NCBI GenBank assembly: GCA_041666545.1
Contig: JBAYGS010000001.1
Span: 217,942-281,941, forward strand
Length of the DNA stretch: 64,000 bases
Reading direction: 5' to 3'
Origin: Minisyncoccota bacterium
GTDB lineage: Bacteria; Patescibacteriota; Minisyncoccia; Phycocordibacterales; JBAYGS01
The position numbers and the translations under genes are program-made. Positions 1,494 through 48,036 of this stretch are shown piece after piece. Under the pieces are notes generated by a model. The model did not search any database. It saw only the letters and a program-made list of their open reading frames with translations, and was not told where the DNA came from. Each line of letters opens with the position of its first letter. Position 1 is the first letter of the stretch.

Positions 1494-1543
1494 GTTAAGG
1501 ACCTTTACGAATAGGACACATGAATATTCGTGTCATTCGTCCC

Positions 1544-1564
1544 CATTCGTGTATTTGTGTCGTG
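1544..1564 (-). repeat. 21-nt motif CACGACACAAATACACGAATG (copy 1, reverse orientation) inside a cluster of ATTCGTG/CGAATA short repeats (1505-1580)
   Basis: Identical 21-mer also at ~18669 and ~50379. Confidence 0.7.
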
Positions 1565-1585
1565 TACATATTCGTGGTTCTATTA

Positions 1586-3362: not shown

Positions 3363-3513
3363 AATTTTTCCTTTCTCTTTCAGCACAATAGCAAATCCTC
3401 GCCAATTTGTCAAGCACTAAAACGGCCCTGTCCTTGGGGCTGTTTTAGTGTCTTTTATCCCATATTTCTTTCCCTCTTCATACCATATACCATACACCTA
3501 ATACTATATACTT

Positions 3514-4619: not shown

Positions 4620-4841
4620 TCAATCCCCGACCGCGACAAGCTTGCTCGGGCTATGGTGCCCATTCACAATCCGGATTTGACCGGCTTTCGGCCCGAAATG
4701 TCGTCGCAAGAGCTCAATCACGCGAGTATTGGCCAGATTGCGCTCGGCCTTTTCCTTGACCTGTATCTTAAAACTCGTGTCCGAGACTTTTTCAAACAAC
4801 TCCTCGTCCGAATTGGTTTTGACTTTTACCTTGATGTACAT
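4620..4841 (-). CDS. DUF167 / YggU-family protein (73 aa)
   Basis: MYIKVKVKTNS...IRIVNG pattern; start taken at internal ATG 4841 (track uses GTG 4883, which would run into the MITE inverted repeat). Confidence 0.55.
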   Translation of the reverse strand: MYIKVKVKTNSDEELFEKVSDTSFKIQVKEKAERNLANTRVIELLRRHFGPKAGQIRIVNGHHSPSKLVAVGD

Positions 4842-5030
4842 CCCGTTAGAGATAGGAAGCGTGAAGTTGTGTACTTTTGACACCCCTATGTGAAATTAAC
4901 ATTAGATGAATAATACCCCACACCGACAAATTAACGAAACGCTTCCGAAGTCTGCGGAGCAAAACGAAAGACAATTTTTCACAGCAACTTGAGAAAATCT
5001 TTAAATTCGAAACAAAATATCTCTAACGGG
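4842..5030. mobile_element. MITE-like element copy 1 (189 bp) with terminal inverted repeats CCCGTTAGAGAT...ATCTCTAACGGG; flanks ACAT/ACAC
   Basis: Same 12-13-bp TIR as elements at 18517 and 29221; internal sub-terminal hairpin (GGAAGCGT...ACGCTTCC); non-coding; left TIR abuts yggU start codon. Confidence 0.6.
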
Positions 5031-6143: not shown

Positions 6144-6425
6144 TCCGGGATAGCTCAGCGGTAGAGCAGTCGCCTGTAGAGTAATGCAGCTTTTTATCGA
6201 AAGGTAAATCGAAAACTTCGGGATAACGGTGGAACCCTACTATTTAAAAATTGAGGGCAATACCGTGGGAACCGAGCACATAAAGTTTATATGCTCGGGC
6301 GCCGTAGAGACTAGATACCGAGGCACCTAAATCCGCAAGGATATGGTGGTGATATAGTCCACGCCATCAGTAATGATGAATTAAGTGTAAGCGATTGGTC
6401 ACTGGTTCGAATCCAGTTCCCGGAG
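6144..6425 (+). tRNA. tRNA-Asn(GUU) interrupted by a group I intron between anticodon-loop positions 35/36; exons 6144-6177 and 6388-6425; no encoded CCA
   Basis: Acceptor stem TCCGGGA/TCCCGGA with U1-A72, G73 discriminator, D-arm GCTC/GAGC, anticodon stem GTCGC/GCGAT, T-arm ACTGG-TTCGAAT-CCAGT. Spliced loop is CUGUUAA (GUU anticodon). Confidence 0.75.
6178..6387 (+). ncRNA. group I self-splicing intron (~210 nt, small IC3-like) within tRNA-Asn
   Basis: 5' splice site after U with an IGS-like GCAG 8 nt into the intron (a CUGU/GCAG P1 with U.G at the splice site); terminal G6387. Core sequence CGCCGUAGAGACUAGAUACCGAGGCACCUAAAUCCGCAAGGAUAUGG resembles the P7/P3/P8 core of Azoarcus/cyanobacterial tRNA introns as I recall them. 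Confidence 0.7.
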
Positions 6426-6441
6426 CTTAGAGGTCATTTAG
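6411..6441 (+). repeat. direct repeat copy 1 = genuine tRNA 3' end (ATCCAGTTCCCGGAGCTTAGAGGTCATTT) followed by hairpin 6443-6466
   Basis: 30-nt block repeated at 6614 and 6818. Confidence 0.8.
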
Positions 6442-6613
6442 CAAACCGCCCGTCTTGGGCGGTTTTGCTTCATCTAAGGTCCGGGAAAGGACGCAAACTG
6501 CTTTGCGTCCGTCTGGATTCGAACGCCGGAGTTGTGTTTTTGTCAGCAGACAAAACCAACGAGGCGGTGCCCAGACAAGGCCGAGCGGCGGCGAGGTTTT
6601 AGTCGCGGGCGAA

Positions 6614-6677
6614 TCCAGTTCCCGGAGCTTAGAGGTCATTTGCAAAAACAGCGTTTCGGCGCTGTTTTTGTTTGACC
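6614..6677 (+). repeat. direct repeat copy 2 of tRNA 3' end + hairpin/T-tract (GCAAAAACAGCGTTTCGGCGCTGTTTTTG)
   Basis: 30-nt identity to 6411-6441; hairpin identical to copy 3. Confidence 0.8.
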
Positions 6678-6817
6678 TCGCTCCGAGGAAGCAAGTGAAC
6701 GATTTCACTTGCGGACTGGATTCGAAGCCCGATTGAGCATTTTTTCAAGCCACAGTGGCGCGGGAAAAATCCAATCGGGGTACTGAAACTGTAAGTTTCG
6801 AAAAACGTACCCGCGGT

Positions 6818-6880
6818 CCAGTTCCCGGAGCTTAGAGGTCATTTGCAAAAACAGCGTTTCGGCGCTGTTTTTGTTTAACC
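6818..6880 (+). repeat. direct repeat copy 3 of tRNA 3' end + same hairpin/T-tract
   Basis: CCAGTTCCCGGAGCTTAGAGGTCATTTGCAAAAACAGCGTTTCGGCGCTGTTTTTG identical to copy 2; degenerate extra copies (CTGGATTCGAA..CCGGAG) at ~6508 and ~6723. Confidence 0.8.
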
Positions 6881-8182: not shown

Positions 8183-8881
8183 ATGAGCATAAAGAGAATA
8201 CTCGTGACAGCCGGCAACACCCGGGTCCCGATTGACAGAGTTCGCGGTATCGACAACATTTTCAAAGGTCGAACCGGAGTCGCAATCGCAAAATATTTCG
8301 CCACGCAGGGTTGTAAGGTGACTCTACTCACATCGCATCCTGACCTCGCAAAGCAGTGTCATCCGAATTTGGAAGTCCTGTCATTCAGTTCGTTTGAACA
8401 ACTGCGTTTTAAAATGAGGGCATTGGTCCAAGACCTAGCCTTCGACGCGATTATTCATTCGGCCGCGGTCTCTGACTATAAGGTTGCCGGCATGTACAAA
8501 CAGACCGGCGAGGCTGTCGAAATTGGTGGGCACCTCCTGCGCGAGCTCAGCCAACTGGACAGCTCTGGCAAAATCGGTTCCGATCACCCCGAGTTGTGGA
8601 TGAAAATGGTTCCAACAGTGAAGATCGTCGACCTGATTCGTGAACCGTGGGGCTTCAAAGGAATACTCGTTAAATTCAAGCTCCAGGTAGACATGACCGA
8701 CGCCGAGCTCATTGAAATCGCCACGAAAAGTATGAAGCACTCCTCGGCCGACTTCATTGTTGCCAACACCCTGGAAGGTCTGACGGCTAAGGCCTTCATC
8801 ATCTCGGTGAAGGGCGGAAATCCGATTCGCACCAGTCGAGACAAACTGCCCGAGAACCTCTACCAAGAACTCGGCCTATGA
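8183..8881 (+). CDS. coaB: phosphopantothenate--cysteine ligase (CoaB domain, stand-alone)
   Basis: ILVTAGNTRVPIDRVRGIDNIFKGRTG matches CoaB motif; ATGA overlap with coaC. Confidence 0.65.
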   Translation: MSIKRILVTAGNTRVPIDRVRGIDNIFKGRTGVAIAKYFATQGCKVTLLTSHPDLAKQCHPNLEVLSFSSFEQLRFKMRALVQDLAFDAIIHSAAVSDYKVAGMYKQTGEAVEIGGHLLRELSQLDSSGKIGSDHPELWMKMVPTVKIVDLIREPWGFKGILVKFKLQVDMTDAELIEIATKSMKHSSADFIVANTLEGLTAKAFIISVKGGNPIRTSRDKLPENLYQELGL

Positions 8882-18488: not shown

Positions 18489-18516
18489 AGTATACACATT
18501 TTCAGCCGTCTGTCAA
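18489..18516 (-). promoter_or_regulatory. candidate sigma-70 promoter (TTGACA-16-TATACT) for permease/ATPase genes; -35 sits at the MITE insertion junction
   Basis: Minus-strand read GGGGTTGACAGACGGCTGAAAATGTGTATACT. Confidence 0.45.
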
Positions 18517-18634
18517 CCCCGTTAGAGATAGGTCGTCGCAACGACGACCGTGGCCGTCACTGTTTCCAAACATTTTGTGTAAAAGCTAAGTTGGTTTCGT
18601 GATCGCTATTCCTAACAAAAAATCTCTAACGGGG
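18517..18634. mobile_element. MITE-like element copy 2 (118 bp), TIR CCCCGTTAGAGAT/ATCTCTAACGGGG, flanked by 4-bp direct repeat TCAA
   Basis: 13-bp perfect TIR; internal hairpin GGTCGTCGCAACGACGACC; ~85% identical to copy at 29221; lies between the binding-protein and permease genes of the ABC operon. Confidence 0.7.
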
Positions 18635-18668
18635 TCAAGACAAATAACGACACCGGTACGCGTTAGCG

Positions 18669-18690
18669 CACGACACCAATACACGAATAG
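18669..18690 (+). repeat. 21-nt motif CACGACACCAATACACGAATAG (copy 2) followed by ATTCGTG/CGAATA short repeats (to ~18745)
   Basis: Match to 1544-1564 and 50379-50399. Confidence 0.7.
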
Positions 18691-18740
18691 CTGAATTCGT
18701 GTGTGCGTATTCGTGGTCTCGCTATTCGCGTACTTTATTC

Positions 18741-18812
18741 GTATGCCCTATTTGTAAGGGTTCTTAACATAAAAACCCCTCGCCTGCCGTAGCAGATGAG
18801 GGGTTGGGCCGG
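18741..18812. repeat. degenerate copy of the palindromic repeat module (TTACAAATAGGGCATACGAATA, palindrome core deleted) + terminator hairpin for the binding-protein gene
   Basis: Shares flanks TAAGGGTTCTTAACA and CGAATA with copies at 22305, 25890 and 42040. Confidence 0.5.
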
Positions 18813-22161: not shown

Positions 22162-22223
22162 TTTCAGCCTTTCTATATATTTTTAGTTATTTGAAGTTTT
22201 CAACGAACACAAATCTGTTTCCC

Positions 22224-22251
22224 ACTATACACAAAGTATAGTTTTTGTCAA
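22224..22251 (-). promoter_or_regulatory. candidate sigma-70 promoter TTGACA-16-TATAGT for xpaC-telA-like operon; shares an identical 26-nt block with the promoter at 25837
   Basis: Minus-strand TTGACAAAAACTATACTTTGTGTATAGTGGGAAACAGATTTGTG. Confidence 0.5.
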
Positions 22252-22304
22252 GCATTTAGGCCAAACTTGGCGTGGTCTCGGATATTAAAAAACAGTTAAT
22301 AACC

Positions 22305-22345
22305 GTTACGAATACGCCTGCCTGCCGGTAGGCAGGGCACATGAA
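22305..22345. repeat. palindromic repeat module copy: TTACGAATACG-CCTGCCTGCCGGTAGGCAGG-GCACATGAATA (20-bp palindrome, one central mismatch)
   Basis: Copies at 25890-25935 and 42040-42080 (perfect palindrome), degenerate at 18741. Confidence 0.7.
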
Positions 22346-22354
22346 TATATAAAA

Positions 22355-22382
22355 AACCGTCTCCCTCTTCGGAGAGACGGTT
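22355..22382 (-). terminator. intrinsic terminator AACCGTCTCTCCGAAGAGGGAGACGGTT + T6 (minus strand) ending the AAA gene
   Basis: Read in sequence. Confidence 0.75.
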
Positions 22383-25790: not shown

Positions 25791-25836
25791 TTTTATCCTT
25801 TTTGATTGGTTTTAAAGGTTCACAAATCTGTTTCCC

Positions 25837-25864
25837 ACTATACACATAAAATTTGTTTTGTCAA
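25837..25864 (-). promoter_or_regulatory. candidate sigma-70 promoter TTGACA-16-TATAGT; identical -10/leader block to 22224
   Basis: Minus-strand TTGACAAAACAAATTTTATGTGTATAGTGGGAAACAGATTTGTG. Confidence 0.5.
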
Positions 25865-25889
25865 CATAAATTCTGGATGGCTTTCTTAT

Positions 25890-25935
25890 TCGCATGCCCT
25901 GCCTGCCGGCAGGCAGGCCTATTCGTAAGGGTTCT
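25890..25935. repeat. palindromic repeat module copy with perfect 20-bp palindrome CCTGCCTGCCGGCAGGCAGG (25898-25917) flanked by TATTCGCATG / CCTATTCGTAAGGGTTCTTAACA
   Basis: Lies between the VWA-gene terminator and the 25837 promoter. Confidence 0.75.
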
Positions 25936-25945
25936 TAACAAAAAA

Positions 25946-25973
25946 GCCCCACACATGCATGCACGTGTGGGGC
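25946..25973 (-). terminator. intrinsic terminator (CCCCACACGTGCATGCATGTGTGGGG + T-tract, minus strand) after the VWA gene
   Basis: Read in sequence. Confidence 0.65.
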
Positions 25974-29208: not shown

Positions 29209-29220
29209 AAATTGATTTGA

Positions 29221-29339
29221 CCCCGTTAGAGATAGGTCGCCGCAACGACGACCGTAGCAGTTAAGGTGTCTCCGGTGTTCTAAACAAAAAGGAGTTTGGC
29301 TTTGTGACTGCCATTCTTAACAAAAAATCTCTAACGTGG
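29221..29339. mobile_element. MITE-like element copy 3 (119 bp), TIR CCCCGTTAGAGAT/ATCTCTAACGTGG, flanked by 4-bp direct repeat TTGA
   Basis: TIR, internal hairpin GGTCGCCGCAACGACGACC and sub-terminal TTCTTAACAAAAAA shared with copy 2; TTGACT immediately outside right TIR. Confidence 0.7.
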
Positions 29340-29416
29340 TTGACTTCCTACTTGAATATGATAATTATAGGTCAGAGTTCAAGCACAAAACCGAACTCGG
29401 AAAAGAAAGGAAAAGT

Positions 29417-32589: not shown

Positions 32590-32605
32590 CCACAAATACA
32601 AAAGT

Positions 32606-32650
32606 GGGGCTAAAACAAAAACTCCCTTGAGGGAGTTTTTGTTTTAGCCC
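32606..32650. repeat. hairpin GGGGCTAAAACAAAAACTCCC-TTGA-GGGAGTTTTTGTTTTAGCCC; 16-bp arms identical to hairpin at 47933
   Basis: Near-identical copy at 47933-47968. Confidence 0.75.
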
Positions 32651-35791: not shown

Positions 35792-35848
35792 ACCTCGTTT
35801 CTTTCCCCATACCATATACTCTATACTTAATACTTTATACTTCCTACC

Positions 35849-41248: not shown

Positions 41249-41839
41249 TTAAATTAGATTAGTGCTGGCTTTTTTGTATTCCTTCTTGGCTCGGTGCAAT
41301 CTGGTCCTGACGGCTGAAATCGAAATTCCTTCGGCGGTCGCGATATCTTCAGAAGTTTTGCCATCTACCACGATACTCTGCAGTAGGCTTTTGGCTCCGG
41401 AAGAAATTTTGGAAATAACTGACAAAAATTCATCAAGCTCGAGGTGCTTTTGCCAACTATCAGCCTTATCAGGCAGATTCTCCACCACCTCCGGTTCCAA
41501 ATCCATCAGACGAGTCTTCTCCAGATTTAGCTTCTTCATCTTGGTGAAGCAGGTGTTGAGCAAAATTCGATAGGCCCAAGATTTGAATGAAGCACCGGGG
41601 ACCGGCCGATACTTGGAGGCGTTAAGATAGATTTTCACGAAAGCATCCTGAACAATATCTTGCACCTCATCCGAAGCGCGTAGCATCATCCGCAGTTTTC
41701 GCACAAACGCATCCTCGTAGCGATCCACGATAACTGAAAAAGCATCTGGATTTTTGATTGAATACACCAAAACTTCCTCATCGGAAAGATTTTCGAGATG
41801 AGAGTTCAGATTCACGATTTCAGCTTCTAGTAAAGACAT
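41249..41839 (-). CDS. ECF-type RNA polymerase sigma factor (sigma-70 regions 2 and 4)
   Basis: Region 2 (QDAFVKIY...SFKSWAYRIL) and region 4 HTH (SEDIATAEGISISAVRTRLHRAK). Confidence 0.8.
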   Translation of the reverse strand: MSLLEAEIVNLNSHLENLSDEEVLVYSIKNPDAFSVIVDRYEDAFVRKLRMMLRASDEVQDIVQDAFVKIYLNASKYRPVPGASFKSWAYRILLNTCFTKMKKLNLEKTRLMDLEPEVVENLPDKADSWQKHLELDEFLSVISKISSGAKSLLQSIVVDGKTSEDIATAEGISISAVRTRLHRAKKEYKKASTNLI

Positions 41840-42039
41840 GCCGATTACTAAATAGACTAAGAATTTAAAGGCATTAGGGAAGGTTGCCCTTCCCTAGAAC
41901 CCACTTCCATATTTTAAATGGGTCCTTAGCCAGCTTACAATTTGCGACCTTTGCTTTATATAACCGTAAGCTAGCGATTTCATTTCAACAACTACACTGT
42001 GCCAAAAAAATGAAATTTAGTCAAAAAAGTTAAGCACCC

Positions 42040-42110
42040 TTACGAATAGGCCCTGCCTGCCGGCAGGCAGGGCATGCGAATAAAAAATCCCCACATGCAA
42101 GCATGCGGGG
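42040..42110. repeat. palindromic repeat module copy: TTACGAATAGG-CCTGCCTGCCGGCAGGCAGG(42052-42071)-GCATGCGAATA + hairpin CCCCACATGCAAGCATGCGGGG
   Basis: Perfect 20-bp palindrome; ~200 bp upstream of the ECF sigma gene. Confidence 0.75.
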
Positions 42111-42111
42111 A

Positions 42112-42292
42112 AATAGTGGCCGGTTCACGGGTCGGGTTCAAGCCCTGCTCAAGGGCGTCAGTTGTCGGCCAGAAGGGCGACACCTATCAGCTATTGGGCT
42201 TTCGGCTCTCGGTTGTTTACGGACTCCTCGGCAGCATCGGCAAGGAAGTGGATAGCACTCCGTTGCGTCATTAGCGCGAGGGGCGCTTTTTT
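42112..42292 (+). ncRNA. GC-rich structured element of unknown identity ending in an intrinsic terminator (GCGCGAGGGGCGC + T6); alternatively a 59-66-codon ORF (42074/42095..42274)
   Basis: Local GC well above surroundings; nested hairpins (GGCCGG...CCGGCC, GCCCT-GCTCA-AGGGC), T-loop-like GGGTTCAAGCCC; no flanking plus-strand gene. Confidence 0.3.
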
Positions 42293-42368
42293 ACCCCCGT
42301 TCCTAAGACATGAACTAGCCAAGGTCGATACTAGCACAACCATAATTTTACGCAAGTCTGGACCAAAT

Positions 42369-47932: not shown

Positions 47933-47968
47933 GAAATGTCGGTAAAACAAAAACTCCCCCTAGGGAGT
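47933..47968. repeat. second copy of the 16-bp-arm hairpin TAAAACAAAAACTCCC..GGGAGTTTTTGTTTTA (see 32606)
   Basis: Arms identical to 32611-32646. Confidence 0.75.
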
Positions 47969-48036
47969 TTTTGTTTTAGCCTGCGCTTTCGCTTTCATTT
48001 TCTACAAACTACTCACTACTCACTACAAACTTCTGC

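Follow-up and report, generated by a model that had tools for sequence, protein, structure and literature searches.

Copies of a widespread 20-bp palindrome between transcription units of a Minisyncoccota genome are probably solo insertions of a mobile element

The window, that is, the whole 64-kb stretch of DNA that was analysed (64,000 nucleotides), belongs to a metagenome contig of 341 kb, and a short Bacillus-type RpoD together with many proteins without a Pfam match fits a CPR genome, probably that of a Candidatus Paceibacterota bacterium. A gene cluster on its minus strand starts with an NMT1/OmpA protein, a VWA protein, an OmpA-like protein, an AAA ATPase, a 285-aa protein and TelA, and continues on the same strand with a substrate-binding protein, an ABC permease and an ABC ATPase. 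The gaps between the VWA and OmpA-like genes, between the AAA ATPase and 285-aa genes, and between the substrate-binding protein and ABC permease genes are occupied by copies of a short repeat, referred to here as the module (copies D, C and B, respectively). Its central part is a 20-bp palindrome, CCTGCCTGCCGGCAGGCAGG, referred to as P, of which the window holds three copies. P is composed of CCTG/CAGG repeats and forms an 8-bp stem with a CCGG loop (−8.0 kcal/mol folded as DNA). The chance expectation for P in the window is 0 (100 dinucleotide-preserving shuffles, up to 3 mismatches) versus the 3 copies observed, and window searches at up to 3 and then up to 4 mismatches give no P beyond copies C, D and E.

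The full module has the structure GTTAAGAACCCTTACGAATAGG-P-GCATGCGAATA. A fuzzy search with the left flank GTTAAGAACCCTTACGAATAGG yields five copies in the window (A–E, Table 1), which are all intergenic and represent both orientations. The initial annotation had placed the palindrome module at three sites, and P is indeed found there, perfect at 25898 and 42052 and with one mismatch at 22317; the flanks TTACGAATAGG and GCATGCGAATA and the motif AAGGGTTCTTAACA are also present as it described them. The palindrome-deleted relic that it had noticed near 18741 is real (18734–18768) and, compared with 25885–25939, exactly the 20-mer is gone. These four sites stand, whereas the total does not, since a fifth copy without P, at 1494–1527, had been missed. 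In the alignment of the five copies, the 20-mer is the sole element missing from modules A and B as compared with the filled copies, and the junction is exact. The pair A/C reads TTACGAATAGG/ACACATGAATAT in A versus TTACGAATACG-P-GCACATGAATAT in C, and the pair B/D reads TTACAAATAGG/GCATACGAATA in B versus TTACGAATAGG-P-GCATGCGAATA in D. Modules A and B may be either empty sites or products of a precise deletion, and the alignment fits both equally.

Table 1. Palindrome copies, module copies and neighbouring signals in the window (P, 20-bp palindrome; a slash marks the junction in modules without P)
Feature	Position	Strand	Description
P copy C	22317-22336	.	CCTGCCTGCCGGTAGGCAGG, 1 mismatch = C->T at position 13
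P copy D	25898-25917	.	perfect 20-bp palindrome
P copy E	42052-42071	.	perfect palindrome; ECF sigma start codon (41839) 213 bp downstream
Module A, without P	1494-1527	+	GTTAAGGACCTTTACGAATAGG/ACACATGAATAT; left flank 1494-1515
Module B, without P (relic of the initial annotation)	18734-18768	-	GTTAAGAACCCTTACAAATAGG/GCATACGAATAAA; left flank 18747-18768
Module C, with P (one mismatch)	22295-22348	+	GTTAATAACCGTTACGAATACG-P-GCACATGAATAT; left flank 22295-22316
Module D, with P (perfect)	25885-25939	-	GTTAAGAACCCTTACGAATAGG-P-GCATGCGAATAAG; left flank 25918-25939
Module E, with P (perfect)	42029-42084	+	GTTAAGCACCCTTACGAATAGGC-P-GCATGCGAATAAA; left flank 42029-42050
Array of degenerate ATTCG-containing words	1516-1585	+	after module A (without P)
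Array of degenerate ATTCG/CGAAT words	18660-18746	-	after module B (without P)
Intrinsic terminator of VWA gene	25946-25973	-	directly upstream (transcription direction) of module D
Intrinsic terminator of AAA gene	22355-22382	-	upstream of module C
Intrinsic terminator	42088-42111	-	upstream of module E
GC hairpin and T-run (TTTTTA)	18776-18803	-	after substrate-binding-protein gene, upstream of module B; seen in the sequence, scan made no call
TTGACA-16-TATAGT promoter, OmpA-like gene	25837-25864	-	downstream of module D
TTGACA-16-TATAGT promoter, 285-aa gene	22224-22251	-	downstream of module C

The module had been described as lying between the terminator of one transcription unit and the promoter of the next. 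This applies to copies C and D, where the intrinsic terminators are strong, whereas the copy at 42052 has a likewise strong terminator but no good promoter between it and the ECF sigma gene; the distance of about 200 bp to this gene, given for the copy near 42040, agrees with the 213 bp measured to the start at 41839. P precedes the inferred start site at a distance, measured from its centre, of approximately 78 bp in D and 110 bp in C, and module D is inverted with respect to modules C and E when referred to the upstream terminator. The spacing from terminator hairpin to −35 box amounts to 81 and 103 nt in the window, and the module makes up most of the extra DNA. No transposase, Y1 transposase, GIY-YIG or tRNA gene is present in the window (about 60 ORFs by Pfam; six-frame HMM for GIY-YIG; Rfam), and 10 kb added at each window end contain no further P or module and no tRNA, tRNA-linked cassette, GIY-YIG gene or transposase. 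A 56-nt repeat, GGGAAACAGATTTGTG, is also observed at 22196–22251 and 25809–25864; it comprises the TTGACA-16-TATAGT promoter with the first bases of the 5′ UTR and precedes the 285-aa gene and the OmpA-like gene.

Short degenerate word arrays are found beside modules A and B (1516–1585 and 18660–18746, ATTCG words) and also at 3469–3513 and 35798–35842, and ATAC words occur too. Comparable arrays lie beside P at many foreign loci (L020, L065, L071, L080, L090, L123). The Logan contig L122, an independent assembly of the same sequence, ends at 25915, inside P copy D, and at 18699, inside the word array of copy B; assemblies from short reads are fragmented by such elements.

The same gene order is conserved in relatives, which are labelled at NCBI as Candidatus Paceibacterota and, in one case, Verrucomicrobiae. 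The OmpA-like protein has syntenic homologues with 63–67% identity, and the order of genes is the same on three contigs. In the same intergenic gaps of L160 and L162, a terminator is followed by a TTGACA promoter within about 20 nt, and in L164 the orthologous genes are 16–20 bp apart. Neither P (up to 4 mismatches) nor the module is found in L160–L165, though terminators and TTGACA promoters are kept. Conservation in related genomes, which the initial annotation had proposed to check, is therefore lacking, as both P and the module are missing from the orthologous terminator-promoter gaps, and this indicates that the module with its P is a lineage-specific insertion. By sequence search, the module flanks are absent from related genomes and from all foreign P loci, so the module is specific to this genome. 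One of the relatives encodes, at L160:3969–4244, a GIY-YIG protein (91 aa) that belongs to another subfamily; its gene adjoins smpB and has no P nearby.

The distribution of P itself is of another kind. A search for CCTGCCTGCCGGYAGGCAGG with one genome per species returned at least 120 loci with P. The labels among the loci listed include Patescibacteria/CPR, Bacteroidota, Omnitrophota, Planctomycetota, Gamma- and Deltaproteobacteria, Nitrospirota and Chloroflexota, with the isolates Winogradskyella, Flagellimonas and Olivibacter among the Bacteroidota, and the flanks of P in these listed loci are unrelated from one locus to another. In viral contigs, exact P occurs in 35 stretches, as compared with 0 and 2 for two composition-matched, CCGG-centred control palindromes. 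One of these controls forms a hairpin no less stable than that of P (−8.7 versus −8.0 kcal/mol) and is not enriched, so the excess of P cannot be put down to hairpin stability alone. The sites are mostly intergenic, since 24% of them fall inside long open frames versus 62% of random positions. Across 119 sites, no target consensus is apparent at the flanks except at the first flanking base, where T is enriched and A depleted, and no target duplication of fixed length surrounds P. Direct repeats of at least 7 bp flank P in 18% of cases versus 2%, with variable length and offset, and inverted repeats in 9% versus 2%. Approximately 90% of the sampled sites are solo, away from a nuclease gene. On the contig that carries L143, L150 and L151, P is nested in two families of larger, contig-specific repeats, and this nesting reproduces the pattern of the window, namely, a universal P inside a local module. 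Selfish DNA normally diverges by lineage, and it is unusual to find one exact 20-mer in CPR, Bacteroidota, Omnitrophota, Planctomycetota, Proteobacteria-labelled MAGs and phages alike; this suggests that the P sequence or its hairpin is recognized by a conserved enzyme.

The sites at which P interrupts a recognizable sequence are particularly informative. In 29 of 31 partial tRNA copies, the tRNA sequence continues exactly across P, with nothing duplicated and nothing lost. The insertion points are found in the D-arm (positions 9–15 and 20–26), at the anticodon stem-loop junction (32) and in the T-arm (64, 70), and within the pseudo-copies of tRNA-Leu alone they fall at positions 12, 14, 15, 23, 24 and 32. 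P also inserts into itself. Such nesting was seen in 6 independent loci, and 5 of these have the inner copy placed behind base 11 of the outer one, in the CCGG loop; in Muricauda, another hairpin is nested within a P-like hairpin, and in L110 P occupies the loop of a terminator hairpin. P contains no stop codon in any frame, and being open in all reading frames it survives inside genes. Indeed, in-frame copies, which read LPAGRQ, are present within the FtsK motor domain (L018:5955) and within the HATPase_c domain of a histidine kinase (L097:1291), both confirmed by Pfam. Taken together, the exact insertions in tRNA copies, the nesting, the copies inside genes and the two presence/absence pairs of the window show that P is a discrete 20-bp mobile unit which favours loops and loop junctions of hairpin-forming DNA. 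Further in-frame copies reading LPAGRQ were observed at L104:5886, with a PMT-family glycosyltransferase domain upstream, and at L060:2000, in a long open frame without Pfam match. In two viral contigs (L147:2239–2330 and L124:~8570–8660), P occupies the variable loop of a tRNA-Met gene, and in L147 ARAGORN nevertheless recognizes the gene, P included, as a tRNA-Met of 92 nt.

All-against-all clustering of the ORFs around 155 P loci did not reveal any dominant neighbour family. The only ORF cluster that overlaps P in these loci is that of a small GIY-YIG protein of about 78 aa (PF01541), whose closest solved structures by sequence match are those of the UPF0213 proteins 1zg2 and 1ywl, with SLX1 next, and whose catalytic Tyr, Tyr, Arg, His and Glu are invariant. 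A metagenome scan seeded with three P-linked GIY-YIG proteins produced 80 loci, and P (up to 3 mismatches) is present in 62 of them, a figure (78%) that holds for one subfamily, as the seeds were drawn from P-linked genes. Counted over the 70 non-redundant loci, 50 copies of P precede the GIY-YIG ORF by no more than 200 nt (median 27.5 nt), and 17 follow closely behind it. A tRNA gene is found within 400 nt in 71 of the 80 loci. The layout of the cassette consists of a partial copy of the neighbouring tRNA split by P, the GIY-YIG gene and the intact tRNA, or the mirror image of this arrangement. Tandem double invasions are seen in L169 and L201, and in a few cases P is replaced by a different GC hairpin (L054, L234, L237, L243). 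The same layout is present in cultured isolates, namely, Muricauda sp. SCSIO 64092 (tRNA-Met) and Ekhidna lutea (tRNA-Leu). Outside tRNA genes, P and a complete GIY-YIG domain stand in frame between the halves of a type I restriction HsdS (L089:2751–4892). The three P sites of the window have no tRNA-like flanks, the window is without a tRNA gene, and a six-frame HMM search and Pfam give no GIY-YIG ORF within about 200 nt of its P copies.

The nuclease family itself is large, with 7902 of 8000 scored candidates reaching E ≤ 1e−10, and its annotation at source is limited to “GIY-YIG nuclease family protein” or “putative endonuclease.” The protein search among cultured phages returned only two weak Staphylococcus phage matches. 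In L154 (~840–1000) and L224, the tRNA copy that follows the GIY-YIG gene runs past the anticodon stem into unrelated, structured-looking sequence; ARAGORN calls no tRNA at these two downstream copies, which may represent an intron-containing tRNA gene.

On this basis, the palindromes of the window are probably solo copies of a 20-bp insertion element that is common to many phyla and phages, with putative mobilization in trans by a nuclease. At other loci P inserts exactly at loops or stem-loop junctions of hairpin-forming DNA, namely, in tRNA copies (D-, anticodon-, variable- and T-loop), in the loop of one terminator and in its own CCGG loop. A Slx1-like GIY-YIG nuclease encoded elsewhere in the genome could mobilize it by acting on hairpin-forming targets and on P extruded as a hairpin or cruciform. 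Branched and stem-loop DNA, the type of structure that P can form, is cut by SLX1; strand transfer, however, is not known for enzymes of the GIY-YIG type, which speaks against this proposal. In the source genome, P is nested at one fixed position of the genome-specific intergenic repeat, and this repeat entered the gaps that separate an intrinsic terminator from the following promoter. The solo copies of the window would be non-autonomous and largely neutral, adding at most a stable hairpin or cruciform to the untranscribed gap between terminator and −35 box. In the cassettes, the presence of P in the spare tRNA copy may shield the cassette from deletion between its direct repeats. A wider proposal is put forward tentatively: P and the minimal UPF0213/Slx1-like gene would form an undescribed pan-bacterial class of mobile element, in which P is inserted or excised at hairpin loops by a structure-specific nuclease lacking a DNA-binding domain, tRNA genes are invaded with partial duplication, and thousands of solo P copies, those of the window among them, are the non-autonomous offspring. 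The tight link of P to UPF0213 GIY-YIG genes provides a testable function for this very large and barely annotated family and would also explain tRNA pseudo-fragments, in-frame LPAGRQ inserts and the breaks of metagenome contigs at P sites.

Several other explanations have to be weighed. The initial annotation had favoured an operator bound by a dimeric transcription factor; such a factor would co-regulate the stress/envelope cluster and the ECF sigma gene. A perfect 20-bp palindrome upstream of three promoter regions fits this proposal, which is nonetheless highly improbable: orthologous promoters lack P, its distance (~−78, ~−110) and the orientation of the module vary, two module copies have no P, and the identical 20-mer recurs at 150 or more unrelated loci in different phyla, phages, tRNA pseudogenes and coding regions, with copies within FtsK and histidine-kinase genes. 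Absence from orthologous promoters and numerous copies elsewhere, some of them inside genes, are outcomes that the initial annotation itself had named as refuting. Besides, the 56-nt repeat is already common to both promoters and is the better candidate for shared regulation. Annotating the palindrome of the window as a site that regulates the stress cluster or the ECF sigma gene is therefore not advisable; it is not a local gene switch, and its copies are probably solo insertions. A structural role for which the host retains P, be it as backup terminator, as insulator between transcription units or as RNA-stabilising hairpin, would agree with its stable 8-bp stem and CCGG loop (−8 kcal/mol as DNA) and with its place between a terminator and the next promoter. 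This is very unlikely, given that no T-run follows P on either strand, that relatives manage without it and that an equally stable control palindrome is not enriched; moreover, P is located after a complete intrinsic terminator and is therefore mostly untranscribed. The probability is negligible that P is a chance, low-complexity (CCTG)n-derived hairpin or an assembly artefact. Its CCTG/CAGG make-up and the Logan contig end inside P might suggest so, but the control palindromes reach 0 and 2 versus 35 for P, isolate genomes and one curated complete genome also contain P, always in consistent biological contexts, and the two independent assemblies are identical up to the break. A sequencing-adaptor or assembly artefact was ruled out on the same grounds of isolate genomes and consistent contexts.

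More weight is given to the explanations that accept P as mobile. The P-GIY-YIG link is an association, and P could simply pile up in the dispensable tRNA fragments made by the cassettes. According to such an explanation, P moves by another route and accumulates in dispensable, hairpin-prone DNA, for example, the tRNA pseudo-copies of the cassettes, or is selected there for breaking the direct repeat that would delete the cassette. The variable position of P in pseudo-tRNAs within one tRNA type (the six positions in tRNA-Leu), its replacement by other GC hairpins in L054, L234, L237 and L243, and the location of the majority of P copies far from any nuclease gene argue in favour of this. We regard it as rather unlikely, since opportunistic insertion alone can hardly produce 78% occupancy with tight gene spacing, and P and GIY-YIG also occur jointly in a non-tRNA site, in frame in HsdS (L089). 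The other explanation, that P is a classical REP/BIME element moved by a RAYT (Y1 HUH transposase), comes close to the selfish, REP-like coloniser that the initial annotation had offered as its alternative. The spirit of a selfish repeat holds, but canonical REP does not. As in the REP/BIME elements of Proteobacteria, which are mobilized by RAYT, P is a short GC-rich intergenic palindrome at the 3′ ends of genes, it forms mosaics with short motifs in both orientations, it is non-autonomous and it inserts without target duplication, as elements of the IS200/IS605 type do. Conversely, P is one exact 20-mer over phyla, whereas REP sequences are species-specific; no Y1 transposase (PF01797) is encoded among the ~60 ORFs of the window and none recurs over ~155 P loci; the sole recurrent gene partner is the GIY-YIG nuclease, with no RAYT nearby; and P is found in tRNA pseudo-copies and in frame inside genes. 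The GTAG/GTGG head of REP is also absent, as the flanks of P in the window are AGG, ACG or GGC on one side and GCA on the other. A REP/BIME identity is accordingly unlikely.

P as a mobile insertion unit can also be compared with other known systems. Rickettsia palindromic elements (RPE) are about 100–150 bp long and restricted to Rickettsia. They resemble P as palindromic selfish inserts that survive in frame in protein-coding genes and in RNA genes, and differ from it in that P has 20 bp and occurs in many phyla. The GC clusters of yeast mitochondria are likewise very short, GC-rich, palindromic mobile inserts in AT-richer DNA without a gene of their own; unlike P, they are organellar, 30–50 bp long and variable in sequence, have characteristic flanks and have no established nuclease partner. 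The foreign P cassettes, to which this comparison is confined by the lack of a nuclease gene at the window copies, share with free-standing GIY-YIG homing genes (the T4 Seg genes, I-TevI) a selfish character and a location beside or within conserved genes, including tRNA regions, with the target remaining functional. The P-linked enzyme consists of the catalytic domain only (~78 aa; UPF0213/Slx1-like), without a DNA-binding domain, and, in contrast to homing genes, part of the tRNA gene is duplicated and the spare copy is split by a fixed palindrome. The nuclease matches SLX1 and UPF0213 (1zg2, 1ywl) in sequence, and its action on P is putative; the minimal bacterial proteins differ from the SLX1 system in the absence of the SLX4 partner and of the RING domain. 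As regards MITEs, a fixed target duplication is not seen, with 29 of 31 insertions exact and free of duplication; as to terminal inverted repeats, P consists entirely of inverted repeat; no longer element bounded by half-sites was seen, and the GIY-YIG genes adjoin P. P does not qualify as an intrinsic terminator either, as a T-run is missing after it on both strands and the true terminators stand separately beside it. In its behaviour P resembles REP elements, RPEs and mitochondrial GC clusters, yet it does not pass the tests that define REP/BIME and MITE elements, and it is rated as a kind of palindromic non-autonomous insertion element.

Neither the 20-mer, nor its 14-nt core, nor the GIY-YIG/tRNA/palindrome architecture was found in any paper in a full-text literature search. 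Dunin-Horkawicz et al. (2006, PMC1564403) described a cluster of Slx1 orthologues with bacterial members and mentioned neither palindromes nor a tRNA-gene context. Rfam gives no match at gathering scores for the whole window, one match far below threshold for each module region at relaxed E-values, and tRNA only for the foreign cassettes.

Other repeated or gene-free sequences of the window were observed as well. An element of about 125 bp is present in three copies (~4835–5030, 18511–18635 and 29215–29340), with 13-bp inverted repeats at its ends (ACCCCGTTAGAGAT ... ATCTCTAACGGGGT) and no significant Rfam match; the copy at 18516 borders on a TTGACA promoter that precedes the ABC permease gene. 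The 211-aa gene is separated from the terminator next to module E by about 260 bp (42112–42368) that are gene-free and without a significant Rfam match, and a plus-strand terminator-like site starts within this stretch at 42273. At 6412–6880, three tandem units of about 202 bp, each closed by a GC hairpin and a T-run (repeat family D1), are possibly an array of small paralogous genes. Finally, a 48-nt AT-rich long hairpin, AAAACAAAAACTCCC...GGGAGTTTTTGTTTT (repeat family D7), which is found at 32602–32649 and 47934–47981, is probably a bidirectional terminator present twice.
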